From a virus (Duplodnaviria; Heunggongvirae; Uroviricota; Caudoviricetes): a stretch of DNA of 64,000 nucleotides. How positions within the stretch are numbered: position 1 is the stretch's first letter; the number at the start of each line of letters is the position of its first letter. Below the pieces are notes generated by a model that did no database searches, was not told the origin of the DNA, and saw only the letters and a list, made by a program, of their open reading frames with translations. The translations under genes were made by a program, and so were the position numbers. Location: IMG/VR virus record IMGVR_UViG_3300031413_000001, one strand, 5' to 3'. Below, one piece after another: positions 385 through 49,542 of the stretch.

Positions 385-463
385 GGCCGCTTAGTTCAAG
401 CTGGCAGAACCGGGCACTCTAAATGCCTGTGCGTTGTGGGTTCGAGCCCCACAGTGGCCACCA
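385..463 (+). tRNA. amber suppressor tRNA (anticodon CUA)
   Basis: Acceptor GGCCGCT/AGTGGCC+A+CCA; D-stem GTTC/GAAC; anticodon stem GGGCA/TGCCT with loop CT-CTA-AA (419-421); T-arm GTGGG-TTCGAGC-CCCAC. Confidence 0.85.
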
Positions 464-535
464 ACTTTCAAGGAACGTATCATGCAGGAACTCATACGAG
501 GCTAACGCCCTCCTAGAACCGCCAATAAATAGTTG

Positions 536-850
536 ATGGCGAAGATTCTAGAGTTCCAGCAGCCGGCCCCCAGGCCCCAGACCCCACAGGAGCGCGCAGC
601 AGAGATCCTGACTGCAAAGCAAGCGGTTGACCTGATCATCATCGACATGGTTACCGCGATGTTGCCTCGCTGGGTGGAAGCTGAGTGGCCCTTTCAACAA
701 CTTGAGTTGATGGCAAACGATATGCGTTACAATCTAGAAGAGACCTTTCCCATCATGGGAACCCGCGGCGATGTGGAAGCACTCGTTGAAAAGCTCAGGC
801 CAACCTGGGAAGAACTGATACGTGAGATAGATCCCTCACTGTTTTGGTAA
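536..850 (+). CDS. hypothetical protein
   Basis: 104-aa ORF between two tRNAs, TAAATA directly upstream. Confidence 0.7.
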   Translation: MAKILEFQQPAPRPQTPQERAAEILTAKQAVDLIIIDMVTAMLPRWVEAEWPFQQLELMANDMRYNLEETFPIMGTRGDVEALVEKLRPTWEELIREIDPSLFW

Positions 851-857
851 ACTTCCT

Positions 858-960
858 GGGCCTATAGTTTAATGGTAGAACAGGGGCCTTATACACCCCC
901 TCCGAAAGGACGCCGCCAGATTAGCGGATGGTCAGGGTTCAATTCCCTGTGGGCCTACCA
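858..960 (+). tRNA. tRNA-Ile(UAU)-like with enlarged two-hairpin variable region
   Basis: Acceptor GGGCCTA/TGGGCCT+A+CCA; D-arm GTTT-AATGGTA-GAAC; anticodon loop CT-TAT-AC (890-892); T-arm CAGGG-TTCAATT-CCCTG; ~33-nt insert. Confidence 0.7.
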
Positions 961-966
961 ACTGTA

Positions 967-995
967 TTGACACGCTGGCTTCTTTTCAATAGAGC
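967..995 (+). promoter_or_regulatory. sigma70-type promoter, leaderless aspS transcript
   Basis: TTGACA-N17-TAGAGC ending 6 nt before ATG 1002; no SD. Confidence 0.6.
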
Positions 996-1001
996 TGGCA
1001 A

Positions 1002-2786
1002 ATGAGCAAAATATATCGCACCCACACCTGCAATGATCTCTCGCAGGCAGAGCGTGGCGAGCAGGTTAGGCTTGCTGGCTGGATCCACAAAAAGCGCAAC
1101 CACGGTGGACTGATGTTCATCGATCTGCGTGACAACTACGGCATCACCCAGCTGGTCCTAGATCCCTCGATGAGCAAGGCTCTTGATGGTGATGAGCTGC
1201 GACTGGAGAGTGTGGTAAGCGTTGATGGTGAGGTTCGTCTTCGCCCCGATGGCACACGAAATGCCAAGCTGGCAACCGGCGATATTGAGCTAGCCGTCAA
1301 GGCCGTCTGGGTTATCAACCACGCGCAGGAACTTCCCGTTCCCGTCAGTGCCTTTGACAATACGTATCCCGAGGACATGCGGCTCAAGTATCGCTTCCTC
1401 GACCTTCGTCGTCCAGAGCTGCACCGCAACATTCACCTCCGTAGCGATGTCATTGACACACTCCGAACGGAGATGAAGCGCAATGGGATCAAGGAGTTTC
1501 AGACTCCAATCCTGACCGCCAGCAGCCCAGAAGGCGCCAGGGACTTTCTCGTTCCCTCGCGCTTGCATCCGGGCAAGTTCTATGCTCTGCCACAGGCTCC
1601 CCAGCAGTTCAAGCAACTCTTGATGGTTGCCGGTTTTGACAGCTATTTTCAGATTGCCCCTTGCTTCCGCGATGAAGCAAGCCGGAGCGATCGCAGTCCC
1701 GGTGAGTTTTATCAGCTGGACTTGGAGATGAGTTTTGTTGAGCAAAAGGATGTGTTCAACCTAACCAGCGATGTGATCTATCGGACGTTCTCCAAGCACG
1801 CCGATGGTGCCAAGGTCTGGCATCCCAGTGAGTGGCCGCAGATTCCCTACCGGGAGGCCATTCAGCGGTTTGGTTCCGATAAGCCCGACCTTCGCAACCC
1901 CTTGGAATTCCGAGACGTAACGGACGAGTTCCGGAACAGCAACTTCAAGATCTTTGCCAACATGATCGCAGATGATCCTGAGGTTCGCATCTGGGGTATC
2001 CAGGCTCCCAACTTCACTGGTGGCAAGTTTGCCAAGCAAATGAGCGACTGGGCTATTGGTCAGGGTCAGCCAGGATTGGCGATGATCTACCCCACGGTGG
2101 AGAACGGTCACTCGGGGCCGGTGGTCAAGGCGCTCGGCAATCCAAGCGGAACGCTCAGTGACCTTCAGAGGATCATTGGTATGAACCCCGAGGACGGTGC
2201 CGCATTCGTAGCCGGCAAGCCCGATGAGTTCTACAAGTTCGCTGGTCTGTTGCGGACCAAGCTGGCCGAGGAACTGTTGCCCGAGGTCTTCAAGGACCCC
2301 GAGTTCAAGTTCTGCTGGATCGTGGACTTTCCCATGTATGAACTGGATGAGCAGGGCAAGGTTGCTTTCTCGCACAACCCGTTCAGCATGCCACAGGGTG
2401 GTATCACGGCTCTGAAGACCAAGAACCCACTGGACATTCTCGCGTACCAGTACGATCTGGTCTGCAATGGCATCGAGCTCAGCAGCGGGGCAATCCGCAA
2501 TCATGAGCCGGACACCATGCTGAAGGCCTTTGAACTGGCCGGATACAGCAATGAGAGCGTGGAAAAGAACTTTGGCGGCATGTTGAACGCATTCCGTTAT
2601 GGTGCTCCGCCCCACGGCGGTATCGCTCCGGGTGTTGACCGGATCGTCATGCTGCTGGCAGGTGCGACGAACATTCGTGAGGTCATCGCATTTCCCCTTG
2701 ACAGTCAGGGCAGGGACTTGATGATGAACGCTCCCAATGAAGTAACGCCTTTGCAGCTCAAAGAGCTAGGTATCAAGCACACCTAA
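1002..2786 (+). CDS. aspS: aspartate--tRNA ligase (likely non-discriminating Asp/Asn type)
   Basis: YRTHTC, FIDLRD, PEGARDF, ALPQAPQQFKQLLM, motif 2 FRDE, GAPPHGG motif 3. Confidence 0.97.
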   Translation: MSKIYRTHTCNDLSQAERGEQVRLAGWIHKKRNHGGLMFIDLRDNYGITQLVLDPSMSKALDGDELRLESVVSVDGEVRLRPDGTRNAKLATGDIELAVKAVWVINHAQELPVPVSAFDNTYPEDMRLKYRFLDLRRPELHRNIHLRSDVIDTLRTEMKRNGIKEFQTPILTASSPEGARDFLVPSRLHPGKFYALPQAPQQFKQLLMVAGFDSYFQIAPCFRDEASRSDRSPGEFYQLDLEMSFVEQKDVFNLTSDVIYRTFSKHADGAKVWHPSEWPQIPYREAIQRFGSDKPDLRNPLEFRDVTDEFRNSNFKIFANMIADDPEVRIWGIQAPNFTGGKFAKQMSDWAIGQGQPGLAMIYPTVENGHSGPVVKALGNPSGTLSDLQRIIGMNPEDGAAFVAGKPDEFYKFAGLLRTKLAEELLPEVFKDPEFKFCWIVDFPMYELDEQGKVAFSHNPFSMPQGGITALKTKNPLDILAYQYDLVCNGIELSSGAIRNHEPDTMLKAFELAGYSNESVEKNFGGMLNAFRYGAPPHGGIAPGVDRIVMLLAGATNIREVIAFPLDSQGRDLMMNAPNEVTPLQLKELGIKHT

Positions 2787-2851: not shown

Positions 2852-3013
2852 GTGGTGATGATGGACCCCAAGCACGTAGCGATCCTCCAGAAGGAGATCG
2901 ACGAAGCTAATGAGGCGCTTGGTGAAGCGGTCTCGGACAACAACTACGCCGAGGCAGCACGCCAGCAGATTCGCCTGGAGGTCCTCGAGGATCTGAACGA
3001 GAAGTTCGTATGA
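2852..3013 (+). CDS. small helical hypothetical protein
   Basis: SD AGGAG; stop overlaps next start. Confidence 0.55.
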   Translation: MVMMDPKHVAILQKEIDEANEALGEAVSDNNYAEAARQQIRLEVLEDLNEKFV

Positions 3014-3540
3014 GCAAGGAAGTCAGCAAGCTGATGTCCTATGCGCTCCGGCACAAGCCGGAAGAGCTGGGCATTACCCTGGACGCGCAGGGCTGGACGG
3101 ACACTTACGAACTGCTGGTCGCCATTCAGCACCGGTTTCCGCAGACCACCATGGACGATCTGATCAAGGTCGTCTCGGACTCCGACAAGCAACGCTTTCA
3201 GATTCTGGGCAGCAATATTCGGGCCAATCAGGGTCACAGTGTTGCGGTCGATCTGGCTCTTCAGTCCAGCAGCCCGCCGGCCACGCTTTATCATGGCACC
3301 AAGCGGGAATTTCTGAGCAGCATCATGGCGAACGGTCTCAACAAGGGCTCGCGTCATCATGTGCATCTGAGCGCCACCACGGACACCGCAGAGATTGTGG
3401 CACGTCGGCGCAAGGGTGAGAGCGTTATCCTGTCCATCAACGCTGCGGCGATGGAAGGCCAGCATGAGTTCTATGTCAGCGAAAATGGCGTATGGCTCAC
3501 CGATCATGTTCCGGCAGTCTTTATCGACGTCCTGAATTAA
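3010..3540 (+). CDS. kptA: RNA 2'-phosphotransferase (Tpt1/KptA)
   Basis: SKLMSYALRH, KQRF, IRANQGHS, LYHGT, RHHVHLS, NGVWL motifs. Confidence 0.95.
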   Translation: MSKEVSKLMSYALRHKPEELGITLDAQGWTDTYELLVAIQHRFPQTTMDDLIKVVSDSDKQRFQILGSNIRANQGHSVAVDLALQSSSPPATLYHGTKREFLSSIMANGLNKGSRHHVHLSATTDTAEIVARRRKGESVILSINAAAMEGQHEFYVSENGVWLTDHVPAVFIDVLN

Positions 3541-11273: not shown

Positions 11274-11708
11274 ATGAGCAAGCTGGTTCCCAATATCGTT
11301 GATACCGCAAGGGTGTTCCGTGGTCAGCCATTGTGCGGCAAGATACGCGAGCAGCGAGCCCACATTTGTCTTGAAAGCAAAGCGTTGGTCTTTGAGATAA
11401 GCAAGCGAGAGCCCAAGGCCCGCTTCTTTGCCGACAAGAGCATGATCGAGTGGGCGGGCGGTCCCTGGTTTATTCAAAGCTTCAAGGACTTTCTGCTTCC
11501 GCAGCTCTCACGTCTTGGAGCCTTGCACCTCCTAGTCCGTGTTGGTGACGTGGAGGCCAAGGACTTGTTCAGTTATCGTACGTGCAATGTGGAACTTGAG
11601 TTCAATCATTCCACGCTGCCCAATCCAATCGCACTGCAACTCGTACAGAAAGCACAACTTCTCGCGATTGTTGATGACGTACTGGAGCGCCAACTGAGTA
11701 CGCTCTGA
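11274..11708 (+). CDS. hypothetical protein
   Basis: 144-aa ORF, apparently leaderless. Confidence 0.6.
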   Translation: MSKLVPNIVDTARVFRGQPLCGKIREQRAHICLESKALVFEISKREPKARFFADKSMIEWAGGPWFIQSFKDFLLPQLSRLGALHLLVRVGDVEAKDLFSYRTCNVELEFNHSTLPNPIALQLVQKAQLLAIVDDVLERQLSTL

Positions 11709-11822
11709 GCGATCTAGTGGTGATTTATAGCTTGACACTTGACATCCTATAGGTAATCTATAGCTTGGTCTGTGGTTGTTAACCATAGATCGGACGCCAA
11801 TGCTATTTCCCGCGAGGTGCCC

Positions 11823-12065
11823 ATGAACACCACAAGCGTGGGGATCACCAAAGAAGCAAGTTCCGTCTTGGACTCTGTTGCAAAACAGACTGGAATGAGC
11901 AAGCTGTATTTGGCCAGCACAGTCATCAAGCTGTTCTTTGACCCCCTGACCAACCCCAACCTACCCCAAGCCCTTAGCGCATTTGAAACGGACCGACGGA
12001 CTGCCGAGCAGGTTTTCGTCGACCGCATCATCGCCACTATGAGATCGGAGAATGTCAATGGATGA
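11823..12065 (+). CDS. small DNA-binding protein, ribbon-helix-helix-like
   Basis: TTSVGIT strand followed by LDSVAKQTGMSK helices; SD GAGG. Confidence 0.55.
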   Translation: MNTTSVGITKEASSVLDSVAKQTGMSKLYLASTVIKLFFDPLTNPNLPQALSAFETDRRTAEQVFVDRIIATMRSENVNG

Positions 12066-13374
12066 GATCAACCTGGATCTCAAGCTGTCCAGCGTTCGCG
12101 TTGGAACAAAGGCCAACAGTCGCCTAGTCTGGAGCATGGGTGTCGAGAAGGAGTTTCTCGATCAGATCCCCGAAGAATACAGAAAGGTTCGCCTTCAGCA
12201 GCAGGGCGGCAAGATGATTGCCCAGCTGGGCGACAGCGGTGTCAAACTCAGCCACAGCGTCAAGGGAAACTTTGCCTGGGCCGGCAGCATTGGCGCCAAT
12301 CACCTGATGGGATTGAGCCTTCCCGAGGATGAGATGCCCGCGCAAAAGCTCAAGGGCCGCTACGTTCACGGCGACCAGCAGATCGTCTTTCTCGCAGATC
12401 TTCCACAGATTGTCCTCAACAGTTTCCTGAATATCAAGGCAGCTCGTGAGGAAGCGGATCCCGAGACACACTTTCCGGCCACGCACTTTCAGGAGGATAT
12501 TCGAGAGGAGATCCAGGCCGACGAGGGTGACCTCAATGATCCCGAGGTTGCCCTGGCGTGGTTCAACAATCGAGTCAAGATGGGTGCTGTCAGTATCCAT
12601 ACTGAGCAGGCAACCCTGACACCCGCACTGGCAGATGTCCTGATCGATCACAACTCGGGCAATCGTCCCATCCGTATTGCCAAGCTGGCCCAGTATGTCG
12701 ATGATATGCGGAATGGTCGCTGGGAGTTCAACGGCGAGACCATCATTATCAGCAAGGAAGGGCTGATGAACAATGGTCAGCACAGAAGCCACGCGGTCAT
12801 TGAAACACAGATTGGCATTCCAGTCTTGTTCGTCTTTGGCGTTGAACGCGAGAGCCGGAAGACCGTTGACACGGGGGCCAATCGTGGGCCGCATGACCAG
12901 CTGAGTGCAGATGGTTTCGCGCAGCCAACAACAATGGCGGCCGTGGCACGTTTTCTCCTCTCCTACGAGGGCAACGCGGGCAAGGGATTTGCCAACTTGA
13001 ATCGCATCAGTGGCCCGGACGTCTACGATCGAGCGAAGAGCGATGCGTTGGTTGAAGAGGCTTCCAACTATCCATACAAGCATGGAAACAAGGCCAAGCG
13101 TCTTGCTCCACCGAGTGTGATCGGCTTCTGCTATTATGCGTTCATGAAGGCGGATCGCCAGGACGCGCAGGACTTTCTTGACCAGGTTGTAACGGGCATC
13201 AACCTGTCCGCCGACAGCGCCGCATACATCACAAGGGAAAAGCTCATGGACTTGAGCGGCCTCCACCGGGAACAGAAGATCGAGCTCTTGTTCCGGGGCT
13301 TTGTGGCGCACAGGAAAAAGAAGCCGGCTCGCGGCTCACAGATCAAAGTCAAGTGGGAATTGCCCCAGCTTTAA
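12052..13374 (+). CDS. ParB/DGQHR-like protein with N-terminal extension
   Basis: NRPI..KL.QY..DM..GRW..NGE..NNGQHR; paralogue of 21006. Confidence 0.75.
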   Translation: MSMDEINLDLKLSSVRVGTKANSRLVWSMGVEKEFLDQIPEEYRKVRLQQQGGKMIAQLGDSGVKLSHSVKGNFAWAGSIGANHLMGLSLPEDEMPAQKLKGRYVHGDQQIVFLADLPQIVLNSFLNIKAAREEADPETHFPATHFQEDIREEIQADEGDLNDPEVALAWFNNRVKMGAVSIHTEQATLTPALADVLIDHNSGNRPIRIAKLAQYVDDMRNGRWEFNGETIIISKEGLMNNGQHRSHAVIETQIGIPVLFVFGVERESRKTVDTGANRGPHDQLSADGFAQPTTMAAVARFLLSYEGNAGKGFANLNRISGPDVYDRAKSDALVEEASNYPYKHGNKAKRLAPPSVIGFCYYAFMKADRQDAQDFLDQVVTGINLSADSAAYITREKLMDLSGLHREQKIELLFRGFVAHRKKKPARGSQIKVKWELPQL

Positions 13375-14330: not shown

Positions 14331-15077
14331 ATGACGAAGCGCACCACTCTTTTGGCCCGGCCAGCAGGAACCCTCGTGGGACGAGGCACGATCCACTATG
14401 AGCCCAACCGCAACGCCGCACTGGCAAAGCGTGAGGATCGGGTGGCCAGTGAGTTCCACAACTTTGCTGTAAACCAGCTGGACGTCGACAAGTTCACGTT
14501 GCGCGGCAACGATGGATTTGTGCTCGACGATGCGCTCCGTGCTATCAAGGACGCTTATACGGAAGCCGACGTGGTCGAGGCACAGCTTGCGGGTCGAAAG
14601 CTCGCAAAGGTGCTCCTCAATGCCAAGGGTGGGCAGGAGTATCGTTCCACGCTGGAGCGCATGGCGCGCTACCGCAATCAGTATCACTACTGGGCGGTTG
14701 CCAACGTGGATCCTGAGATCGCACGGTACTATCGCTGGTGGGTCAACCGGGAGTTGATGAACATCACGATGGAGCCGGGCTTTGGTCTGCAGGCTCCCAG
14801 CCACACTCCGCACATCACGATCACTCGTGGCGTCAACGACATGCTGGATGTTCCCAAGGCGGAGCGTAACGCACTGTGGGGCAAGTATGAGAATGAGGTG
14901 GTTGAGTTCACCTATACTCCTGAGGTTCGCTACACCGGTGACACCACGGGGGATCGGAAGGCAACTCACTGGTTCATTGTCGTGAACGCTCCCAAGCTGC
15001 GTCAGATCCGTGAGGAGTTTGATATCCCCACGAACTGGAACCTGCACTTGACGTTTGGCAAGGACTATTTTGTTTGA
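14331..15077 (+). CDS. 2H phosphoesterase-domain protein
   Basis: Two HxT motifs (PHITI, LHLTF) in C-terminal half. Confidence 0.7.
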   Translation: MTKRTTLLARPAGTLVGRGTIHYEPNRNAALAKREDRVASEFHNFAVNQLDVDKFTLRGNDGFVLDDALRAIKDAYTEADVVEAQLAGRKLAKVLLNAKGGQEYRSTLERMARYRNQYHYWAVANVDPEIARYYRWWVNRELMNITMEPGFGLQAPSHTPHITITRGVNDMLDVPKAERNALWGKYENEVVEFTYTPEVRYTGDTTGDRKATHWFIVVNAPKLRQIREEFDIPTNWNLHLTFGKDYFV

Positions 15078-15984: not shown

Positions 15985-16463
15985 AGCCCGGCGACCTCAA
16001 AGCCAGTGAGAAGCTGCCCCGAGGTTCCTACTTTTACATTAAGGTGGGCTCACGCTTCTACGGCGGACAGCAGATTGAGCAAGTGGAAGTTCTCAGCGAT
16101 CCACGCGACGAGCGTCCACTGACTTACTTTGAAAAAGATGGTCGAAAGACCGAAGGCTATCGCCAATATCAAGTTCGTCAATACTGGTGGAGCTCGCGTA
16201 GTCGCGGTCCACGAGGATCTCGTCTTGAGCGCGATCAGCAAAAGGGCTCTCTTCCCAAGTATGCTGAGCCACGAAAGCGCGTTGAGAAGGTTGTCAAACA
16301 GGAGTTTACGGGACGTTCCCTTCCCATGCTGGTCGATAGTGCAGATCAGGCCAAGCAATTCAGGAAGAAAGAACAGGTAGAATCCGCTTGCTCTATGCTC
16401 CAAAGCCTGTATGGTACAGTTGGCGCTAACGTAAGCGTCCACTACAAAGGAGACACCCGGTGA
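15981..16463 (+). CDS. hypothetical protein
   Basis: ATGA/GTGA overlaps on both sides. Confidence 0.65.
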   Translation: MKPGDLKASEKLPRGSYFYIKVGSRFYGGQQIEQVEVLSDPRDERPLTYFEKDGRKTEGYRQYQVRQYWWSSRSRGPRGSRLERDQQKGSLPKYAEPRKRVEKVVKQEFTGRSLPMLVDSADQAKQFRKKEQVESACSMLQSLYGTVGANVSVHYKGDTR

Positions 16464-16939
16464 GCATTCTCGTGGCGCTGAACGCCAAAACCCTCGAACT
16501 GCGAAAGGCTCGTGATCCACTGGCCGGTTCGTTTCAGGGCATCCAGGCTCTGGCGACGGCGAATGCCAAGGATCGCCTGATCAAGGAACAGGCAAAGCTG
16601 CCGGAAGATCAGCGCAGTGTGGACTTCTCGACGGTCAAGGCCGATGAGCAGGACGCCATCGCGGCTGTTCAAAAGGGCATCAAGCAAGTCCGGGACACCC
16701 TGGCACTCGTGCCCACGGACGCCAAGAGCCTTCGTGAGCTGGAGATCCTGGAGGCGCTGATGCCGAAGCAGCCCAGCGAGGACGAGATCCGTGGCGAAAT
16801 CGAAGCCGCACTCAACACGATGGACGAGCGTCCCAAGGGCGTGGTGGGTATGCTGATGAAGCACCTGGTCGCCGTGTTCGGTCCCACACTGGACAAGGGC
16901 AAGGCCAGCGCAACCATCAGTAAGGTTCTGGCCGCCTAA
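16460..16939 (+). CDS. GatB/YqeY-domain protein
   Basis: ELEILEALMPKQ.SEDEI...GMLMKHL...G..LD...AS pattern. Confidence 0.75.
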   Translation: MSILVALNAKTLELRKARDPLAGSFQGIQALATANAKDRLIKEQAKLPEDQRSVDFSTVKADEQDAIAAVQKGIKQVRDTLALVPTDAKSLRELEILEALMPKQPSEDEIRGEIEAALNTMDERPKGVVGMLMKHLVAVFGPTLDKGKASATISKVLAA

Positions 16940-17268
16940 AGTAGCCGGCGCTTAAAGCGAAACTCCAAGGCAGGTTCGTCTTCCCAACGGATAAAGGCGA
17001 ACTTGACCTCGGAGATCGCTTCGTCGAGTGTGACGTTAAACCACTCCCCACGTATCCGCTTGTGCCCCAGTTGCCGGTGGATCAGCTTTTCGATCACTTT
17101 GGCCTTGGACGTTTCTGTTTCCTCCCTGTAGTGGAGGTGCAGAAAGTCCGTGGTTCCCACTTGCAAGGTGGACAAACGGTGGCTGGGGTTGCCGCTGTAG
17201 CCAATCTTATAAGGTCCCTCTGCTGGGCCGATGACGTAAATACTGGTGAGACTGGTTTCGCTTGACAT
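16936..17268 (-). CDS. GIY-YIG (T5orf172/MUG113-like) nuclease
   Basis: IYVIG...YKIGYS.NP..RL..LQ...EK.IH...RGEWF. Confidence 0.85.
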   Translation of the reverse strand: MSSETSLTSIYVIGPAEGPYKIGYSGNPSHRLSTLQVGTTDFLHLHYREETETSKAKVIEKLIHRQLGHKRIRGEWFNVTLDEAISEVKFAFIRWEDEPALEFRFKRRLL

Positions 17269-19712: not shown

Positions 19713-19930
19713 TCAAAGTGGTGCTGGTTTCCGGGTGGGGATCCAGATCTGAACTGCTTCTCCCACAGGTTCCAAAGGTGGGAGAAGAGTTCGTCATGGT
19801 TGATGCTGTTGACGAGTACACATCAATTTACAGGGTGACCCGCGTTCGGTGGTTTGCTCCCAGCGGGTTCATCGACGATCAGCGCATTTTCAATGGCGAC
19901 GTCTGGGCCGAGGTTTACCTCTCGACATAA
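19709..19930 (+). CDS. hypothetical protein
   Basis: GTGA overlap; QVPKVGE motif. Confidence 0.6.
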   Translation: MIKVVLVSGWGSRSELLLPQVPKVGEEFVMVDAVDEYTSIYRVTRVRWFAPSGFIDDQRIFNGDVWAEVYLST

Positions 19931-19932
19931 AG

Positions 19933-20025: not shown

Positions 20026-20029
20026 AATA

Positions 20030-20320: not shown

Positions 20321-20416
20321 CCTCCCTTATACAGAACAACGCTTTCCGCTTCAATATTCTTATTTCCATGAAAAAGATTGCTCTAAATGTCTCTTTTTCT
20401 TGTGTTTTGCACCAGG

Positions 20417-32101: not shown

Positions 32102-32737
32102 ATGATGACCGAAGAAACAACCACCGATGTGATGCAGCACCCCATAGTCGTGAAGGCTATGGCGTTCATGATCAACGCTCACCGCAACCACGCGCTGAAG
32201 CCTGATCCTGAGCTGGGTGGCCAGCGTCGCAAGTACAGCAAGGCTCACTACGAGGTTCATCCCATCCAGGTGGCCAAGATGATCGCAAAGTCGCGGGACA
32301 ATGATCCGGTGACCGTCGCGGTCGCGCTGCTCCACGATGTGGTTGAGGATACGACCACGACCGGCCAGCATATCGGTGAGGCGTTCAAGGAGTTTGGCAG
32401 CGAGGTTTGCGCCTCGATCATCGCCGGGGTCTATGAGTGCAGCGACGTTTCCAAGTTGGAGGATGGCAACCGGGCGTTCCGGCGCAATCTCGACAAGGAG
32501 CATGCCTGGCTTGCAACGGCGGAGCGGAAGTCGGTCAAGCTCGCAGACATCAAGAGCAACTTGCCCAGCATCGTCGCTCATGATCCGGGCTTTGCTCGGA
32601 AGTGGGTGCAGGAAAAGGCAGATGTGTTGCCCGGGTTGACCGAGGGTGATCCCCAGTTGTTCCAGGATGTCAAGGCGATGATCGAGAAGTTCTTCGCCCG
32701 ACAGCCGGTCAAGGATCCCGCGTGGGAGTTGGTCTGA
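32102..32737 (+). CDS. RelA/SpoT-type HD hydrolase (small alarmone hydrolase-like)
   Basis: AH...Q.RK...Y..HP..VA, ALLHDVVED, VKLAD..SN. Confidence 0.85.
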   Translation: MMTEETTTDVMQHPIVVKAMAFMINAHRNHALKPDPELGGQRRKYSKAHYEVHPIQVAKMIAKSRDNDPVTVAVALLHDVVEDTTTTGQHIGEAFKEFGSEVCASIIAGVYECSDVSKLEDGNRAFRRNLDKEHAWLATAERKSVKLADIKSNLPSIVAHDPGFARKWVQEKADVLPGLTEGDPQLFQDVKAMIEKFFARQPVKDPAWELV

Positions 32738-34896: not shown

Positions 34897-36114
34897 TTAG
34901 GGTTCCAAGCCAACAACGGTCCAGCTGAACTGGTTATTAGTACGGTCAAGACCAAACCAGACAACCTTTCCATCAATGAACTCAGGATAGGTCTGATGGA
35001 AGTTCGCGTAAGTTGTTGGCGTTCCATTTAGACTGAAGCCTGTGTTGCTGTTCTGAGAACTGGCAGCACTCTGCTCACTCATGTTCTGATCCACTCGACG
35101 GATAACCTTGAACCTGTGAGGAAAGTTCACTGGATTGCTCAGGGAGTTGCGAGTCATCTTCAACACATAGTCAGTGGTCAGTGGCAACAAGTAGTGACCC
35201 GCAGTATCAATAGCGGTCACGTTGGTAAAGCCACTGGAACCTAGGCTGATAAAGCTGCCAGCCGTGTAATCAATGGAAACCCACGCGATGCTGTAATTGC
35301 TGGTCAAGTATGCCATGCGGTCACCAGGAAGGGGTACCATGTCGCCTAGACCAATATTAGCAGTTGTCACGGGTAGTTTGTTCCATGGAACTTGAACGGC
35401 ACCAGTTTGGTTGTTGATTACCACACCAGTTGCACCGCGAAGTTCGCCCACACCACTACTGAAGTAGCGATGCTGAATTAGTGTTAGATCACGTCCAGGA
35501 ATGGGCCTAGCGGTGATCTCGCAGTTGTTGATCAGGTTGGAAAACAAGATCGTGGGAGCAACGTCCCACGTCATTGTCTTGGTCGTGGTGTTGTAGGTTC
35601 CCTTGACACCCTGTGTTGTGCTGCTTGAAGAACCATTGGTACCCTGTGCAACATACATCACAAGGTTGTCTTTGAGCTCAACAATCTTAAAATTGGTTTG
35701 AGCAAACGTTGACAACGCGGCAGACGTGGTAGTGGTTCCAAAGCCAAACTGACCCATGTCAACGCGAGTGAATACTCCCTGCGGATCAACCTCAAAGACG
35801 TACCAGCTCATGTTGCCAGTGTAGACACCGGTCATCATCATAAACGTGGTCTGATTGATTCGAGCGCAGGTCATGTAATTGCTCTGCGTCAAAGGCATCA
35901 GTAGCTGCTGATTGGTTAGCGTGGCAGTGCCCTGACTGGTGATACCACCCGAGACGTCGATGACACTGGCCGCCAGCCAGTTGGGAGAAGTTTGATAGTA
36001 AAGCCAGACCATACGCGATGTGGACAGGCGAACCATTCCATGACCGGTCTTGTCGGTGTTGAATGAACCACCCTGAAAGGGCATTGCACCAATTGAGCGA
36101 ACTGTAGTTGCCAT
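34897..36114 (-). CDS. beta-rich putative virion protein (paralogue A)
   Basis: VRLS..RMV..Y and K..RR.D.N motifs shared with 36922 and 38247. Confidence 0.75.
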   Translation of the reverse strand: MATTVRSIGAMPFQGGSFNTDKTGHGMVRLSTSRMVWLYYQTSPNWLAASVIDVSGGITSQGTATLTNQQLLMPLTQSNYMTCARINQTTFMMMTGVYTGNMSWYVFEVDPQGVFTRVDMGQFGFGTTTTSAALSTFAQTNFKIVELKDNLVMYVAQGTNGSSSSTTQGVKGTYNTTTKTMTWDVAPTILFSNLINNCEITARPIPGRDLTLIQHRYFSSGVGELRGATGVVINNQTGAVQVPWNKLPVTTANIGLGDMVPLPGDRMAYLTSNYSIAWVSIDYTAGSFISLGSSGFTNVTAIDTAGHYLLPLTTDYVLKMTRNSLSNPVNFPHRFKVIRRVDQNMSEQSAASSQNSNTGFSLNGTPTTYANFHQTYPEFIDGKVVWFGLDRTNNQFSWTVVGLEP

Positions 36115-36117
36115 CTT

Positions 36118-36825
36118 TTATCCTCCTTGATAGGTCATCCAATCGTTTGGAGCCGGCGCTGGCTGATCATAGGCATAATCAGCACTGACTGGTCGCGATG
36201 TGGATGGTGGAGCAACCGAGGTCGCCGTTGTTTCATCCCACCAGGTATTGTCCTCTGGTGTTGTTTGGTCTTGGGCATATTGAGCACTTGTGGGTGCCCC
36301 AATGTTCGTTGGTACCATTGTACCACTTGTCTCATCCCACCAGTTGTTGTTCTCTGGCGTAACCTGATCTTGTGCATACTGAGCATTGGTTGGTCGAGCA
36401 GAGTTGGTTCCAACGACCGTTCCCGTAGTCTCATCCCACCAGTTGTTATCAGTGGGTGTGGATTGACTTTGGGCATAGCGGGCACTTGTTGGTGCTGGAA
36501 CGCCGGGCGCGCTGCGAACAACCGCCGAAGTCTCGTCCCACCAAGCGTTATCGGCCGGCGGAGTGCTCTCATAGTTGTAATTACCAGCGACAAGTCTCTG
36601 GATATCGGTTGCCTGCTGGGTAGCACCGGTGATGCCCCACTGATTGATGTCTGCGGGTTGATCGGTTGCCACGTAGTTTCCAGTTGCAGGACGAACTCCC
36701 GTACCATTGACCACTCGGCCGGTGTTGTTCCAAGCCATGATATCAGCGGGTTGATCGGTTGCCGCATAGTTGCCGGTGTCGGGTCGAGAGGCTGGAGTAC
36801 TCTTGACAAAGAGGTTTGTTGCCAT
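36118..36825 (-). CDS. repeat protein (about 7 units of 31-34 aa, RP...YA.DQ..P.D..WW)
   Basis: Tandem repeats visible in protein and DNA (period ~93-102 nt). Confidence 0.75.
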   Translation of the reverse strand: MATNLFVKSTPASRPDTGNYAATDQPADIMAWNNTGRVVNGTGVRPATGNYVATDQPADINQWGITGATQQATDIQRLVAGNYNYESTPPADNAWWDETSAVVRSAPGVPAPTSARYAQSQSTPTDNNWWDETTGTVVGTNSARPTNAQYAQDQVTPENNNWWDETSGTMVPTNIGAPTSAQYAQDQTTPEDNTWWDETTATSVAPPSTSRPVSADYAYDQPAPAPNDWMTYQGG

Positions 36826-36869
36826 CCACCATTCCTGGGGACGAACAGGCTTCTTCATCGATCTGATCT

Positions 36870-36899
36870 TTAGGAGTGGGGGTTTCCACCCACTCCTAA
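36870..36899 (-). terminator. hairpin
   Basis: TTAGGAGTGGG...CCCACTCCTAA inverted repeat. Confidence 0.55.
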
Positions 36900-36921
36900 C
36901 ACTTATCCTAACGCTCATATC

Positions 36922-38202
36922 TTACGATGCATTCTTCAAAATGTTCCAGGCCAGTTTGCCCGAAGCATCAAGTCCCCACCAAAACACATCGCCGTTTGGC
37001 AACATGCGGGGGCGACTGTCATTGTACCAAGTCTGGATCCAGGGAGCCGTTACTTCAAAGCCAGTTGCACTGATGGCGCTTCCTGGGCTCTGACTTGCCA
37101 TGTTGGCATCATCACGACGGGTGATCTTGATCTTGATATTGCCGCTGGTTGCGCTGGCAAAGTGGGTACGATCCCACAGCATCACATAGTTGGGGTCCAT
37201 TGGAAACGCCAATTGTGGATTGGGAGATTGCGTTGAAGTAAAGCTACCAAAGCCATCATTGGTCGAGGTACCCACTGTGTTAGTGGTGCCACCGCTCAAT
37301 CCATAGTAATAGTTCCAAGTCCAGGACGTGCGAGCCATACGAGTGTCGGACATCATAGCCATGTCCTGCGCCTGCGTGACAAGCGAGTTACCCAGCGAGT
37401 TCTCAAAACGTGGATAATTGGCTGCAATCGTGCCATCGGCATTGACTACCAGTGTTTGAAACTGCATCGCAGTACCATTCCAAGCAGCCAAGGTACTGGC
37501 AGTCTTAAACGTGATAGCCTTCTTGGTGCTGTTGGGAATCGCACGCCAGTAAACTTCCGCGGAGTTAGCAGATCCCGCGTTGTTGAAACCTCCTTGGGAG
37601 GTCAAGTTGCTGCTATTGAATGTTACAACCTTGGTCGTGGTGTTGTAGGTACAGACAGCAGAGACGCTAGTCACCGAGGAATTGTTGAACCCAGCAAAGA
37701 GAAACTGATTATCGGCCAGTGGCACCAGTGTCGCGATGTTGGTGAACTTTGCATTGGAAAGCTGCTGAGGGGTCAAGTAGCCGGTGGAGTTGGGAATAGA
37801 AGTCTGCACAACATCGTAGGCATCCAGATTGGTTGCCGTTCTGGTGAACACATTATCGGCGTTGATCTCAAATACTTCATAGGACCAGCTAACGCTGGTT
37901 ACGGCCTGAAGATCCATGATCATAAAGGCGTTGTCGTTTAGCCGTACCATCTGAAGACTCAAGCCCCTGTAGGTCTTCTGATCCTGCATACGCGAGACAG
38001 TGACTGTTGGTGTACCGCCATTGGCCCAGCCCTCTGGGGTATCAACAACCACAAAGTAACGCCAATCAGGTGCACTCTGACAGTAAGTCCAGATCATGCG
38101 AGTTGGGGTTAGCTGGACGGCTGCCGAATAGGGCTGCGCGGTCCTAAGTGTTCCACCATTGTAGGGAATGGCAGGAATGCTTCGTGTAATTACCTCAGCC
38201 AT
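36922..38202 (-). CDS. beta-rich putative virion protein (paralogue B)
   Basis: VQLTPTRMIW.Y; KITRRDDAN; TAAATA upstream. Confidence 0.75.
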   Translation of the reverse strand: MAEVITRSIPAIPYNGGTLRTAQPYSAAVQLTPTRMIWTYCQSAPDWRYFVVVDTPEGWANGGTPTVTVSRMQDQKTYRGLSLQMVRLNDNAFMIMDLQAVTSVSWSYEVFEINADNVFTRTATNLDAYDVVQTSIPNSTGYLTPQQLSNAKFTNIATLVPLADNQFLFAGFNNSSVTSVSAVCTYNTTTKVVTFNSSNLTSQGGFNNAGSANSAEVYWRAIPNSTKKAITFKTASTLAAWNGTAMQFQTLVVNADGTIAANYPRFENSLGNSLVTQAQDMAMMSDTRMARTSWTWNYYYGLSGGTTNTVGTSTNDGFGSFTSTQSPNPQLAFPMDPNYVMLWDRTHFASATSGNIKIKITRRDDANMASQSPGSAISATGFEVTAPWIQTWYNDSRPRMLPNGDVFWWGLDASGKLAWNILKNAS

Positions 38203-38246
38203 ATTTTGCTCCTATTGCTTGACGTATTTATCTGCGTTGTTGGATA

Positions 38247-39914
38247 TTAGACTGGACGGAATTCCACCATGGAAACATAGATTCCGCCAATACCTCCCTG
38301 AACAGATCCATCGGTACTGTAACTCATTGACATGTTTATGCTGGTTCCCGAGACCGACACCTGTCTTTCCACAAAATCATTACTGAAAGATCCAGTACCT
38401 GATGCAACAGTCGATCCTCCCAGAGAGAGATTATAGGGATCATAGGTGTTTTCAGACTGAGCTAGGAAACGAATGATCGCAACACTCATTCCTGCGGGAA
38501 CCTTGAATGTGAAGCTGGTAGAATAGCTGACATTGTTTCCATGAGCGGGGGTGGCAAGTACGCCTGTTGATCCCAGCGCGGTATCGACGTAATCCAATAG
38601 CCTGAATCCTGAACCTGTTACTGTCATGTTTGCTGGTAGCTTGGTGGTGTCGTTGAAGAGGAAACGGGCATTCAAAACACGAGTTGGCTGTGGCAGTGGA
38701 TCAGTGGCCGGTGGGTTCACTGGTGCTACAGAAGTCGGCTCAAGCATGTTCAGACGATACGTTCCCGAAGACAATCCAGCCCACATCAAGTTGTTCTTAC
38801 TGGTTACAACAGGTCGCCTCTTGTCAAAGGGAAGTGTGAACTTGGTAGCGGCCGTGGAAGACGGCACCACCTTGCCCCACCAGTTATTAGCCGACCAAGT
38901 GCTAACTGTGTGAAAGTTCTTGTCTTCTCGACGAACAGCCTTCATGAACATTGAAGTATCAAGCTCTTGAAAGTATTCGCGTCGTAGCTGAAGATGATGA
39001 TCATTACCGAGTGGAACAATGATTGGTCGATACAACGTATTGTCATCATTGCTACCACTATAGTTCTGTGAGGCTGACCAGCTTTCGACGGTACCGTCCT
39101 TATTGTAATAGGTTTGACGCCCCCACTTGCTTACTACCATCCGATTGGGACCAAGGAACATTGGCTCACCATCAACGGTAAAGCGCGACCTGAGAGGGAC
39201 TCCGGTGTTGTCCATAAGCCAGATGCGAGTTGAGTAGGCGTAATAGTTGACCGTCACTGACCTGTTGACAATCATGGTATCGGTGGTGCCTGGAATCCTC
39301 TGCCATGAGATATCAGTGGTCAAATCTGTTTCACTGTCCACAGATTGACGAACCAGTGTTACCGATGCAGTGACTACTGGGGGACCAGCCGAAGCCGGAT
39401 TGAACTGATAGACAGCATAAGTGGACTGGTTGCTGGTGTTGTAGTAGGTTTGAATGAACCGAGTATCAGACAAGGGGATCAGAACGTGACTGGCATTGTA
39501 GCCATTATTCTTTGCGTTGGTGTTTGTCTGAACACTGGTATTCAACACGCGGGTGATGGTGGTCCCTGAAATCTCAAAGACTTCCAGCTTGATTGTTCCA
39601 GTGCTGCGCGGCTCACTTACCACAAAGCGGGTATCACTCAACCGGACAACACTGGCGCCATTTCCCTGAAAGGCTTCTCGATCCAGATAGCCAACCGTCC
39701 GAGTGATAGTTGGACTGGCAATGTTGGTGTCAAGGCCGTCGGGCATATCAACGACCAGAAAAGTCCTGGTGTAAAGGTCGGGTGAGACCCCGGTGATGTT
39801 ATAGAGGATCACCATCCTGTTGTCCGTTAGGCGAACATGGTTGGTAGATGTATAGGTTCCATTGAATGTTCCCTGGGCAACATTCAGCGCAATCTGACGC
39901 GAGACAATAGCCAT
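38247..39914 (-). CDS. beta-rich putative virion protein (paralogue C) with extra C-terminal domain
   Basis: VRLTDNRMV.LY; KAVRREDKN; Pro linker then beta-sandwich-like domain; TAAATA upstream. Confidence 0.75.
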   Translation of the reverse strand: MAIVSRQIALNVAQGTFNGTYTSTNHVRLTDNRMVILYNITGVSPDLYTRTFLVVDMPDGLDTNIASPTITRTVGYLDREAFQGNGASVVRLSDTRFVVSEPRSTGTIKLEVFEISGTTITRVLNTSVQTNTNAKNNGYNASHVLIPLSDTRFIQTYYNTSNQSTYAVYQFNPASAGPPVVTASVTLVRQSVDSETDLTTDISWQRIPGTTDTMIVNRSVTVNYYAYSTRIWLMDNTGVPLRSRFTVDGEPMFLGPNRMVVSKWGRQTYYNKDGTVESWSASQNYSGSNDDNTLYRPIIVPLGNDHHLQLRREYFQELDTSMFMKAVRREDKNFHTVSTWSANNWWGKVVPSSTAATKFTLPFDKRRPVVTSKNNLMWAGLSSGTYRLNMLEPTSVAPVNPPATDPLPQPTRVLNARFLFNDTTKLPANMTVTGSGFRLLDYVDTALGSTGVLATPAHGNNVSYSTSFTFKVPAGMSVAIIRFLAQSENTYDPYNLSLGGSTVASGTGSFSNDFVERQVSVSGTSINMSMSYSTDGSVQGGIGGIYVSMVEFRPV

Positions 39915-47021: not shown

Positions 47022-47207
47022 ATGGCCGAGGAGATCACTGCGGCTCGCTTTCGCGCTGCGGTTGGTCGCGAGCCAGAAAACGATGACCTGTCCCGCAGTA
47101 ATTGCTCAGAGCGAGGTGATGATGGTCACTGGTGTTGCGGCTGGGATCATGCGGCCAATCTTCCGGTGTTCATGACTGGAACAACCATCTACCGACTGGA
47201 AAAGTAA
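47022..47207 (+). CDS. small Cys/His protein
   Basis: DDL.R.NC...G..GH..CGW. Confidence 0.65.
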   Translation: MAEEITAARFRAAVGREPENDDLSRSNCSERGDDGHWCCGWDHAANLPVFMTGTTIYRLEK

Positions 47208-47392
47208 TGCTTTGGGGACTGACATACCATACTATTCAAATGGTATTGGCTTTTCTGTTCGTGTTTCTCGCCGGCGCCCAAATGGAGCGCGGACGAGTGG
47301 CAACCAGCTTGTTACTCTTAGTTGTGGGAATCTTGACCTTTCTGGCCGAGGTTTCCACCTTTCTAGTCTTCATTGGACCACTGATAGCCTGA
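47207..47392 (+). CDS. small membrane protein
   Basis: Two TM segments; TAATG coupling. Confidence 0.55.
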   Translation: MLWGLTYHTIQMVLAFLFVFLAGAQMERGRVATSLLLLVVGILTFLAEVSTFLVFIGPLIA

Positions 47393-47598
47393 TGAAACGA
47401 TCAACCATAGAAACAATCAGTCAGAGTCTCAAGGTCGTAGGAACCATAGTGGTTGCCCTCATGGCTATTTGGTTACTGACAGACGATGTTCAGCCCAACT
47501 ATGTCCAGGGACGGATGATCATGGGCTTTCTAATGATCATCCTGGGCTACTTGATAGATATCAAGTACCTATTGGAAGATCGAAACAACACGAGGTAA
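47392..47598 (+). CDS. small membrane protein
   Basis: Two TM segments; TGATG coupling. Confidence 0.55.
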   Translation: MKRSTIETISQSLKVVGTIVVALMAIWLLTDDVQPNYVQGRMIMGFLMIILGYLIDIKYLLEDRNNTR

Positions 47599-47602
47599 CC
47601 CA

Positions 47603-47992
47603 GTGAGCGATCCAATCAACAATTCGGAGCGGCGACCAGTCCGCATCTTGACCGCGATGCCCAGCGACACCAACCCAGATGGTGACATCTTTGGTGGATG
47701 GCTGATGAGCCAGATGGATCTCGCGGCCGCTGCGGTTACCAAGCGCCGCGCTGGTGGTCGGACTGTAACGGTGGCCGTTGAGGGATTCAAGTTCATGGCT
47801 CCCGTGAAGGTTGGCGACGAGGTTGTCATCTACGCGGACATCAAACAGACTGGTCGTTCCTCGATGCACTGCATGGTCTGCACCTATGCACTCGCAGGCT
47901 GCACCGGAGTGGCCACCAAGGTCTGCGAAGCCATGTATGTTTTCGTCCACATCGACGAGAATGGCAAGAGCAAGAGGCTTCCTGAGGAATGA
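47603..47992 (+). CDS. yciA: acyl-CoA thioesterase (hotdog fold)
   Basis: AMPSDTNPDGDIFGGWLMSQMD, F..PVKVGD, GRSSM. Confidence 0.9.
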   Translation: MSDPINNSERRPVRILTAMPSDTNPDGDIFGGWLMSQMDLAAAAVTKRRAGGRTVTVAVEGFKFMAPVKVGDEVVIYADIKQTGRSSMHCMVCTYALAGCTGVATKVCEAMYVFVHIDENGKSKRLPEE

Positions 47993-48222
47993 CGCACAAG
48001 ACCATCTGGGTACTGGAGCATCTTCTCTTTGGGGCATTTGTTCTCTTCGTCACCCTCTTGCCAGCGATCGTCAGTCAGATTTACAAAGCATGGGCGTTGG
48101 GTGGTCGAAGTGCCCTTCATCCTGCGGAATACAAGAAGATTGAGAACCGTGAGTTCCTGATCTTTGTTGTTGGCTACCTGCTGCTGGTGATCATCTTTCT
48201 CTACACGGCAGCACCCAACTAA
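47989..48222 (+). CDS. small membrane protein
   Basis: Two TM segments. Confidence 0.6.
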   Translation: MTHKTIWVLEHLLFGAFVLFVTLLPAIVSQIYKAWALGGRSALHPAEYKKIENREFLIFVVGYLLLVIIFLYTAAPN

Positions 48223-48261
48223 AGGCTAGACAGGCAGGCACTTTGGTGCAACTACTGGACT

Positions 48262-49542
48262 ATGACAGTAGTGACACGCTTTGCGCCAAGTCCAACTGGC
48301 TACCTTCATATCGGAGGAGCCCGTACGGCACTCTTCAACTGGCTCTATGCTCGGCATATGGGTGGAAAGTTCCTGATCCGCATTGAGGACACCGACAAGG
48401 AACGGAACACTCCCGATGCCATCGAGGCAATCTTCACCGGGCTGGCCTGGCTGGGTCTAGATCCCGACGAGGATATCGTGCTGCAGAGCAGGAATGCCGC
48501 CCGTCACGTCGAGGTAGCCAATCAGCTGATCGACCAGGGCATGGCCTATTATGATCCCAACAACGTCAATGAAGAGGGACAGGGGGCTGTCCGGATTCGT
48601 GGTATCAAGGGCGAGCAGACCATCGAGGACTTGGTACAAGGCACGGTAACGTGGCGCCAGGATATCGATGACTTTGTGATTCTCCGAAGCGATGGAACGC
48701 CAACCTACATGCTGGCAGTGGTTGTGGATGATCACGACATGGGTGTCACTCATGTGATTCGCGGTGACGACCATCTGAACAATGCCTTCCGTCAGCTGAG
48801 CATCTACAAGGCAATGGGCTGGCCCATTCCCCAGTATGGTCACATTCCCCTGATTCACGGCGAGGATGGCAAAAAACTCAGCAAGCGAACCGGCGCGGCA
48901 TCGGTTGACGAGTACCGGATGGACATGGGCATCCTGGCACCCGCGATGGTCAACTACCTGGCACGACTGGGCTGGGGACATGGCAACGATGAGCTGTTCA
49001 CGATGGATCAAGCCATTGAGTGGTTTGACATCAAGGACGTGGGCAAGGGTGCAGCTCGTCTGGACAGGAAAAAGCTGGCCAGCATCAATGGCCACTACAT
49101 CAGGAACACGGAGCCCGAAATCCTTGCAAGGAACTGGGTTGGACCGCTTCTGCATGAGCAGGGCATTGACTGGGACGATGCCATGCTCGTTGGGGCAATG
49201 GCGGCGCTCCGTGAGCGTTCCACGGACCTCAACGCTTTAGCGAAGGGAACCCAGTTTCTCTGGGACCTGCGACCCATCTTCATCGAGGAAAAGGCTCGCG
49301 AAAAGCTAGACGGCAAGATCCTCGAGGAACTGGATGAGCTGCTGGTTAGTGTGCCCTGGGACAAGGATCACCTGGAGCATCGTGTCAAGGCCTACGCGGA
49401 CGTGATGGGTCACAAGCTGGGAGTGGTAGCCGGTGTCCTCAGGGCAGCACTGACTGGTAGCACAATCAGTCCGCCGATCTTTGATGTAATGGTCCTCCTG
49501 GGAATGGAGCAGACCCTGGGTCGCATGAGGGATGCCAAGTAA
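48262..49542 (+). CDS. gltX: glutamate--tRNA ligase (shortened)
   Basis: TRFAPSPTGYLHIGGART, RIEDTD, VIRGDDH, KKLSKR, R.ALTG...SP. Confidence 0.96.
   Translation: MTVVTRFAPSPTGYLHIGGARTALFNWLYARHMGGKFLIRIEDTDKERNTPDAIEAIFTGLAWLGLDPDEDIVLQSRNAARHVEVANQLIDQGMAYYDPNNVNEEGQGAVRIRGIKGEQTIEDLVQGTVTWRQDIDDFVILRSDGTPTYMLAVVVDDHDMGVTHVIRGDDHLNNAFRQLSIYKAMGWPIPQYGHIPLIHGEDGKKLSKRTGAASVDEYRMDMGILAPAMVNYLARLGWGHGNDELFTMDQAIEWFDIKDVGKGAARLDRKKLASINGHYIRNTEPEILARNWVGPLLHEQGIDWDDAMLVGAMAALRERSTDLNALAKGTQFLWDLRPIFIEEKAREKLDGKILEELDELLVSVPWDKDHLEHRVKAYADVMGHKLGVVAGVLRAALTGSTISPPIFDVMVLLGMEQTLGRMRDAK

Follow-up and report, generated by a model that had tools for sequence, protein, structure and literature searches.

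Giant eukaryotic viruses (Mimivirus, Klosneuvirus, Tupanvirus) gather aminoacyl-tRNA synthetases (aaRSs), tRNAs and translation factors piecemeal from their hosts, and in phage T4 the enzymes Rnl1 and Pnkp repair tRNA-Lys that has been cleaved by PrrC. This repair is reviewed in a survey of jumbo phages by Iyer, Anantharaman, Krishnan, Burroughs and Aravind (2021, Viruses, PMC7824862), which also describes tRNA provisioning, ribosome rescue by PTH2, KptA found with 2H enzymes, an HD alarmone hydrolase, and ATP-dependent RNA ligases accompanied by kinases and by phosphatases that include calcineurin-like types. According to the same survey, jumbo phages usually have no conserved aaRS complement. 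Small alarmone hydrolases are known to neutralise toxSAS (Jimmy et al. 2020, PMC7229694; Kurata et al. 2021, bioRxiv 10.1101/2021.04.30.441581), reversing the pyrophosphorylation of the tRNA CCA end and degrading (pp)pApp. The general idea that huge phages carry their own tRNAs, synthetases and RNA repair has thus been published, and the finding reported here opens no new category. It concerns a 64,000-nucleotide stretch of DNA (the window) from a virus of the Caudoviricetes, IMG/VR record IMGVR_UViG_3300031413_000001, in which eight genes for enzymes of the tRNA cycle (the toolkit), two tRNAs and a tRNA-like element are scattered between positions 385 and 49,542.

What is new is the concentration of a leaderless promoter design on these tRNA-cycle genes; a design shared in this way was not found in the sections of Al-Shayeb et al. 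(2020, PMC7162821) that were searched. The best explanation, to which we give a probability of roughly 0.55, would be that the phage owns a pool of tRNAs together with enzymes that charge, recycle and repair them, expressed from leaderless promoters of host type. The toolkit does exist and has been conserved, though without forming a module. For the rest of the genome a 416,714-bp IMG/VR phage contig (G002) was used as a stand-in: its lysyl-tRNA synthetase (LysRS) is 99% identical to that of the window, and 57.5 kb of the window is collinear with it at 82-99% identity (~95% overall).

Eight enzymes of the tRNA cycle

The earlier note on this DNA, made from the letters alone, had named eight enzymes and two tRNAs, and all ten were recovered at its coordinates with catalytic motifs intact (Pfam, Rfam, ARAGORN), the 2H protein lying below the Pfam cut-off. 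The enzymes, and the promoter of the first of them, are:

967-1001 (+), leaderless-type promoter of AspRS: TTGACA, 17 nt, TAGAGC, 6 nt, ATG
1002-2786 (+), aspartyl-tRNA synthetase (AspRS), bacterial type, by Pfam, NCBIfam and motifs 2 (FRDE) and 3
3010-3540 (+), Tpt1/KptA RNA 2'-phosphotransferase, its start overlapping the end of a small open reading frame (ORF) at 2852-3013
14331-15077 (+), 2H phosphoesterase, C-terminal domain at residues 115-248 after a helical N-terminal extension
16460-16939 (+), YqeY / GatB-tail-like protein, GTG start with a Shine-Dalgarno site
28690-30348 (+), class I LysRS, HIGT and KISKS motifs
32102-32737 (+), small alarmone hydrolase-type HD protein, a single RelA/SpoT hydrolase domain, 211 aa
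40830-41198 (+), Pth2 peptidyl-tRNA hydrolase, archaeal/eukaryotic type, by PTH2 match and motifs
48262-49542 (+), glutamyl-tRNA synthetase (GluRS), 426 aa, HIGG, KLSKR and anticodon-binding domain

AspRS matches PF00152 (tRNA-synt_2, 359 bits) and, with its N-terminal OB anticodon-binding domain, PF01336 (54 bits); it exceeds the equivalog cut-off of NF001750 (744 bits against 443), and FRDE and GGIAPGVDR can be read in the translation. The class I LysRS reaches 302 bits with PF01921 (tRNA-synt_1f) and 528 bits with NF001968 over residues 5-538, under the strict cut-off of 648. GluRS matches PF00749 (266 bits), carries the PF19269 anticodon-binding domain that GluQRS lacks, and scores 415 bits with TIGR00464 (cut-off 290). 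An identity as GluQRS was considered and rejected, given this domain and the scores of the GluQRS models, which fall under cut-off.

Among the remaining enzymes, Tpt1 matches PF01885 (PTS_2-RNA) with 156 bits and NF002014 with 213 bits, under the cut-off of 239, and has the Arg-His-Arg-Arg catalytic set (LRH, RANQGHS, RHHVHL). Pth2 matches PF01981 over residues 4-120 (45 bits, cut-off 23) and PDB entry 2zv3 (E = 5e-7); the motifs GK...AQ..HA and DAG.T are present, and its NCBIfam score is high but under the equivalog cut-off. YqeY reaches 32 bits against a Pfam cut-off of 27. The HD protein reaches 34 bits with PF13328 (HD_4, cut-off 27), has no synthetase domain, and contains the HDxxED motif (LLHDVVEDT, with KLADIKSN further along the signature). 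The 2H protein scores 23 bits with Pfam 2H-SAK, under the cut-off of 27, and its H161-I-T and H239-L-T motifs are invariant in 15 homologues. The genes had been described as standing alone among phage-type ORFs, and most of their neighbours indeed match no Pfam family.

Predicted leaderless promoters

The hexamer TTGACA is found 51 times on the coding strand of the window where 13 would be expected, a fourfold excess. The design listed above for AspRS recurs before the genes at 14331 (2H), 28690 (LysRS), 32102 (HD), 40830 (Pth2) and 48262 (GluRS). In all six promoters TTGACA, TTGACT or TAGACA begins 31-35 nt 5' of the ATG, with TA at -12/-11, and no Shine-Dalgarno site was seen before any of the six starts. 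With this spacing the first transcribed base should be the A of the ATG or one adjoining it, and the mRNAs of the six genes, judged from their sequence, should be leaderless. The design stands at 6 of the 8 toolkit genes, compared with 5 of 93 others (p = 9e-6), so that the claim that the toolkit genes mostly have their own promoter holds for six. The exceptions are YqeY, which has a normal ribosome-binding site, and Tpt1, which overlaps the preceding gene; both look coupled to genes upstream.

The same design can be seen in relatives. Orthologues of 2H, HD, GluRS and, in part, LysRS retain it, in genomes where the proteins themselves are only 55-72% identical. Throughout G002 the distance from TTGACA to ATG has a sharp peak at 34-35 nt, with 33 sites as against ~1-3 at other distances, and this peak includes the genes for cysteinyl-tRNA synthetase (CysRS) and a Pnkp-like enzyme. 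A generic sigma-70 scan gave 18 sites in the first 20 kb of the window (8.8 expected); most of the leaderless promoters escaped it on account of their weak -10 boxes. These results make a regulatory prediction, namely that most toolkit genes give leaderless transcripts from promoters of host type.

Conservation among relatives

All window proteins were compared with five whole relatives. G003, G004 and G005 all carry the genes for 2H, YqeY, LysRS, HD, Pth2 and GluRS in the same relative order, with identities of 55-72% (except for a partial 2H match of 44% in G003). These six are for the most part also found in the distant G006, at 30-52% identity; YqeY was found in G003-G006, and Pth2 in 6 of 6 relatives. 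Eleven window genes are detectable in G006 and six of them belong to the toolkit, compared with 5 of the 93 others (Fisher p = 9e-6). The toolkit enzymes are intact and under long-term selection.

Other members are less constant. AspRS occurs only in G002 and G007 besides the window, and Tpt1 only in the window and G002; the former is patchy and the latter lineage-specific, and since neither is conserved in the clade the toolkit is not a fixed unit. The sets of aaRSs vary as well: in G006 there are a MetRS, two class IIb enzymes and one of Ile/Val/Leu type, G007 encodes ArgRS (in this genome only), CysRS and AspRS, and tryptophanyl-tRNA synthetase (TrpRS) is specific to the lineage of G002 and missing from the other relatives. 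LysRS, GluRS and also CysRS are conserved across the clade. Beyond it, a collection of 50,697 phage records gave one distant LysRS match, in an archaeal virus at 25% identity. A clade with several complete genomes in this way separates a core (class I LysRS, GluRS, Pth2, SpoT-type hydrolase, 2H, YqeY) from add-ons (AspRS, Tpt1, TrpRS).

Possible substrates of the 2H, HD and Tpt1 proteins

The 2H, HD and Tpt1 proteins lend themselves to a different account, in which they destroy immune or stress signals made of nucleotides: cyclic oligonucleotides, which are what the 2H enzyme Acb1 destroys, (p)ppGpp or (p)ppApp, and ADP-ribose phosphates derived from NAD. The synthetases and Pth2 would then be an unrelated supplement to translation. 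An AlphaFold (AF2) model of the 2H protein has a pLDDT of 85. Its C-terminal domain finds the anti-CBASS nuclease Acb1 (7t27) as the top structural match in a VIA search (Z 6.9, 103 residues, root-mean-square deviation 3.2), tied however with LigT, CPDase, CNPase and Usb1 (Z 6.0-6.3, all matches lying at Z 6.9-5.8); a Foldseek search gave no PDB match at E <= 0.001. From the model and the motifs the protein can be placed in the 2H phosphoesterase superfamily, but the fold scores fail to separate the subfamilies, and Acb1 is without the long helical N-terminal extension seen here. In the PDB the HD protein finds the (p)ppGpp hydrolase domains of Rel, SpoT and Mesh1 (E = 2e-8 to 1e-5), a result that would suit a signal-destroying enzyme; small alarmone hydrolases are nevertheless capable of both jobs. 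In PMC7824862 a jumbo-phage HD alarmone hydrolase and 2H enzymes are listed under counter-nucleotide systems, and KptA is linked with 2H and Macro in the processing of ADP-ribose cyclic phosphate. Against this stands the fact that the 2H and HD genes share a conserved syntenic stretch and a promoter class with the aaRS genes, and we consider it quite unlikely that signal destruction explains them.

Transfer RNAs and repair enzymes of the phage

Two tRNAs and one tRNA-like RNA had been noticed in the window; both tRNAs are real, and the third RNA corresponds to a conserved element:

385-463 (+), tRNA(CUA), amber suppressor type, A73 and encoded CCA (ARAGORN; Rfam 48.6 bits)
858-960 (+), alternative end 957, five-arm tRNA(UAU) (Rfam 52.4 bits; ARAGORN with introns allowed)
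~19930-20021 (-), tRNA-like element at the 3' end of a non-coding stretch

The tRNA(CUA) has orthologues at the syntenic place in G002-G005. Its identity to the Lys(CUU), Phe, Met and Gln tRNAs is alike (0.67-0.70), and because of this no parent can be named. It is worth noting that CUA (amber-reading) tRNAs occur throughout the clade, 1-3 per genome, and fall into two sequence types (A73 and G73). TAG ends 9 of the 102 window genes tallied, and no convincing gene with amber read-through was seen in the window. The sole long in-frame extension matched in relatives, at 16936-17268 (-), is antisense to the conserved YqeY and was taken as an artefact.

The tRNA(UAU) adjoins AspRS and is ~100 nt long, with G1.U72, A73, an extra hairpin in the variable region and the loop CAGAUUA; the window copy also has a small extra GNRA hairpin. 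The fifth arm, a covarying stem, is kept in G002, G003 (L127:13145-13240 (-)) and G005. The same five-arm design (loci L369-L448, L489-L541 and L551-L630) was found on more than 120 IMG/VR contigs and at 119 places in bacterial genomes, mostly of Acidobacteriota, and 40 diverse phage copies show compensatory changes at 21 of 23 predicted pairs. The extra stem has 3-5 bp and a 7-nt loop; when no loop sequence was required, it read CAGAUUA in half of the copies and xAGAUxx in most others. In this way GAU, the major tRNA-Ile anticodon, falls at the anticodon position of the loop, so that the extra arm looks like an anticodon loop with GAU, and the arm may give Ile identity to a decoder of AUA without lysidine. 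No paper on this family was found in the literature.

The tRNA-like element is a conserved minus-strand element without a known family, as no Rfam, ARAGORN tRNA or tmRNA call was obtained for it. It has an acceptor-like stem, a perfect T arm and an enlarged 'anticodon' loop of 20 nt, and sits in an ORF-free stretch (19933-20354). It is 99% identical to its counterpart in G002, the flanks being ~94% identical, and at the syntenic place it is 80-82% identical over 79-92 nt in G004 and G005, and 74% over a longer stretch in G003.

Further members of the toolkit lie ~200 kb away from the window. The earlier note had proposed a search of the whole genome for cognate tRNAs and an RNA ligase, and in the near-identical G002 both are present. 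This genome has 55 tRNAs, the majority in one array, including two CUA tRNAs and, as cognates of the window synthetases, Asp(GUC) x2, Glu(UUC, CUC) and Lys(CUU) x3. It also encodes TrpRS, CysRS and two truncated class II cores. An RNA ligase of the T4 Rnl1 family (L015:16151-17341(-), PF09511 108 bits) is present in 5 of 5 relatives searched, and G002 has a second ligase-family gene; RtcB is absent from 5 of 5 relatives searched. With a Pnkp-like kinase and metallophosphatase (L015:2920-4188(-), 422 aa, TIGR04075 positions 4-400), G002 holds a healing-and-sealing pair of an Rnl1 ligase and a 5'-kinase/3'-phosphatase, outside the window and ~200 kb from it. No Pnkp gene adjoins Rnl1, the neighbours of which are an R2K ATP-grasp gene and ClpP; the Pnkp-like gene is ~13 kb off.

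These genes belong to a second translation and RNA-repair island of G002, at ~103-117 kb (L015:2920-17341), which comprises the Pnkp-like kinase-phosphatase, a truncated GlyRS-like core, a CUA tRNA, CysRS, the R2K ATP-grasp ligase, Rnl1 and ClpP. The leaderless promoter design also stands before its Pnkp-like, CysRS and R2K genes.

Origin of the synthetases and likely host

Full-length aaRS genes of bacterial (alphaproteobacterial) type could mean that the DNA belongs to a bacterium, as a chromosome, chromid or megaplasmid on which the toolkit genes are the housekeeping copies. The genome itself argues otherwise. The near-identical and related contigs that share LysRS are IMG/VR phage genomes of 277-465 kb, one of them with direct terminal repeats and 100% estimated completeness and three estimated complete, and they carry terminase-like ORFs. 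Just five aaRS types are present in all. The window (54% G+C) holds ~100 mostly small genes, almost all on the plus strand as far as ~57 kb; around half of them are small ORFans in a single orientation, and Rfam finds two tRNAs only and no rRNA. A megablast search of 50,697 phage records gave no close record for 20 kb of the window. The window DNA is from a huge phage of ~420-465 kb, and housekeeping copies, the case in which the earlier reading would have failed, can be ruled out for practical purposes.

The synthetases tell the same story. In a comparison set with one genome per species, the closest bacterial enzymes are from Alphaproteobacteria, with 45% identity for LysRS, 54% for GluRS and 57% for AspRS, and Sphingomonadales are the top match for two of the three. 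The phylogenies called for by the earlier note place all three enzymes beside alphaproteobacterial ones in separate phage clades: in maximum-likelihood trees huge-phage sequences form groups apart from bacteria for LysRS (n=9, SH-aLRT 100), GluRS (n=6, 99) and AspRS (n=3, 99; the window, G002 and G007 copies). A 6.5-kb 'viral' contig nested inside Sphingorhabdus was set aside as probably bacterial. The trees point to old captures of the synthetases followed by descent within the phage clade. Alphaproteobacteria use class I LysRS, and because the nearest aaRS relatives are alphaproteobacterial too, the phage probably infects an alphaproteobacterium. Al-Shayeb et al. (2020, PMC7162821) described the same aaRS pattern as general among huge phages.

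Proposed role

The activities, substrates, timing and benefit that we infer for these genes can be put together as follows. The window would be part of an early-gene region of a phage that brings a near-complete tRNA set of its own, plus enzymes that cover the tRNA cycle step by step. Charging would fall to AspRS, class I LysRS and GluRS in the window and to CysRS and TrpRS elsewhere, with YqeY as a possible tRNA-binding helper. Pth2 would free tRNA from dropped-off or blocked peptidyl- or N-acyl-aminoacyl-tRNA, and the SpoT-type HD hydrolase would clear the tRNA 3' end or alarmones. Cut RNA would have its ends healed and be sealed by 2H and Tpt1 in the window and by the Pnkp-like enzyme and Rnl1 elsewhere. 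The genes are mostly read singly from host-type promoters with mRNAs predicted to begin at the ATG, and their products would be made on DNA entry, the leaderless mRNAs depending little on Shine-Dalgarno-based initiation. In this way a charged pool of phage tRNAs could be kept working as the support of translation by the host declines, be it by phage-induced shut-off or by host defence.

Several observations weigh against this explanation. Starts of non-toolkit genes come from a home-made caller, and other leaderless genes may be undercounted in the promoter comparison; a scan independent of the caller gives ~9-14 leaderless-type starts in the window. The contrast in conservation is inflated, enzymes being more readily detected at long distance than small ORFans. 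Family scores for Pth2, YqeY and the HD protein are modest, and AspRS and Tpt1 have the narrow distribution described above. For the 2H protein the fold scores of a tRNA-repair CPDase/LigT and of an Acb1-type nuclease are tied within 1 Z unit.

The earlier note had gone further and proposed a coordinated system of rescue from defence. A promoter class common to six of eight genes fits shared regulation, and to this extent coordination stands; a single operon or module does not, as the genes are scattered across 48 kb among unrelated ORFs and six have their own promoters. A counter-defence purpose may be proposed for the toolkit in a stricter form, with the genes selected specifically to undo immunity directed at tRNAs or aaRSs. 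Spare aaRSs would then outnumber or escape Hip-type kinases, Pth2 would reverse the acetylation of aminoacyl-tRNA by GNAT toxins, and the HD hydrolase would strip the 3' pyrophosphate put on tRNA by toxSAS of the CapRel/FaRel2 type; 2H, Tpt1, Pnkp and Rnl1 would mend the cuts of anticodon nucleases, and phage tRNAs would replace cleaved host tRNAs.

This form has in its favour that there is a matching published toxin for each enzyme, that Rnl1 and the Pnkp-like enzyme are present, and that promoters of an early type would be apt for genes directed against defence. After pyrophosphorylation by toxSAS, tRNA is restored by small alarmone hydrolases (bioRxiv 10.1101/2021.04.30.441581), Pth is described as the detoxifying enzyme for the tRNA-acetylating toxin TacT (PMC9241777), and tRNAs encoded by phages escape anticodon nucleases, retron effectors and PARIS (PMC10264068, PMC11555353, PMC12409363). 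In the alphaproteobacterium Caulobacter, HipA1 and HipA2 phosphorylate GltX, LysS and TrpS (PMC7029023), and GluRS, LysRS and TrpRS, the corresponding target types, are all encoded by G002. A substitution of the target serine (residues per PMC7029023) was looked for in the KMSKS loops of GluRS and LysRS and not found, the motifs reading KLSKR and KISKS, and escape from Hip kinases by these enzymes was rejected. TrpRS is moreover confined as described, AspRS and CysRS have no known kinase link, and the aaRS sets differ widely.

Points against the stricter form also come from the tRNAs and repair genes. The classic PrrC target is the UUU isoacceptor of tRNA-Lys, but all Lys tRNAs of G002 are CUU; with a Pnkp-type phosphatase present, a route by 2H and Tpt1 would be unnecessary for repair; and there are no known defence genes of a host of this phage. 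We regard selection specifically for counter-defence as unlikely. The further idea that Lys, Glu and Asp were chosen as targets of anticodon nucleases or HipA is not supported, given the presence of CysRS and TrpRS, the differing sets of relatives and the retained KMSKS serine.

A more elaborate variant may be mentioned, and we regard it as very unlikely. Here the genes would form an immediate-early leaderless regulon kept for long in huge phages of Alphaproteobacteria, in which GluRS, LysRS and TrpRS back up GltX, LysS and TrpS hit by Hip kinases, leaderless mRNAs are translated under impaired initiation, and the five-arm tRNA(UAU) decodes AUA without the lysidine pathway of the host. Pairing toxin by toxin offers a way to tell whether phage synthetases serve counter-defence or simple capacity.

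Other features of the window

Four large minus-strand ORFs (405, 266, 426 and 555 aa) at 34897-39914 (-) differ in codon-position G+C, match no Pfam or PHROG family and occur only in the window and G002; the block may be a recently acquired island. Two PHROG 5931 paralogues of unknown function, 12052-13374 (+) and 21006-21929 (+), are both missing from G002, where the alignment gaps are clean (11700-13372 and 20958-21940). The first of them has orthologues in G003-G005, a pattern that looks like gain or loss of a mobile gene. No protein of the window is better conserved than the YciA-like hot-dog thioesterase (4HBT) encoded at 47603-47992 (+), two genes 5' of GluRS, with 69-83% identity in four relatives. 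At 54417-55676 (+) a TPM-domain (phosphatase-like) protein of 419 aa with TPR repeats is partly conserved in relatives.

Comparison with known systems

The toolkit can be compared with five groups of described systems. Like the giant eukaryotic viruses, these phages appear to have captured translation genes independently and piecemeal from their hosts, in a different virus realm and from different hosts; the captured aaRSs are alphaproteobacterial and number five, whereas up to twenty are found there. The HD protein is the same kind of single-domain RelA/SpoT-type hydrolase with HDxxED as those that neutralise toxSAS, the phage gene being predicted and standing alone, without a toxin partner. 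With regard to T4, the Rnl1-family ligase, which each of the five relatives searched has, is likewise accompanied here by a 5'-kinase/phosphatase, but the healing enzyme resembles bacterial Pnkp (kinase and metallophosphatase) where that of T4 is a kinase-HAD phosphatase, it lies ~13 kb from the ligase and outside the window, and a PrrC-like nuclease of the host is not known. The jumbo-phage survey (PMC7824862) already lists almost all parts of the toolkit other than the aaRSs; the difference lies in LysRS and GluRS (and CysRS), which are conserved within this clade, and in the arrangement of the parts as dispersed single-gene units instead of operons. As far as the compared sections of Al-Shayeb et al. 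(2020, Nature, PMC7162821) go, the aaRS trees give the same picture as the translation complements of huge phages described there, with the difference that the clade presented here keeps a class I LysRS.

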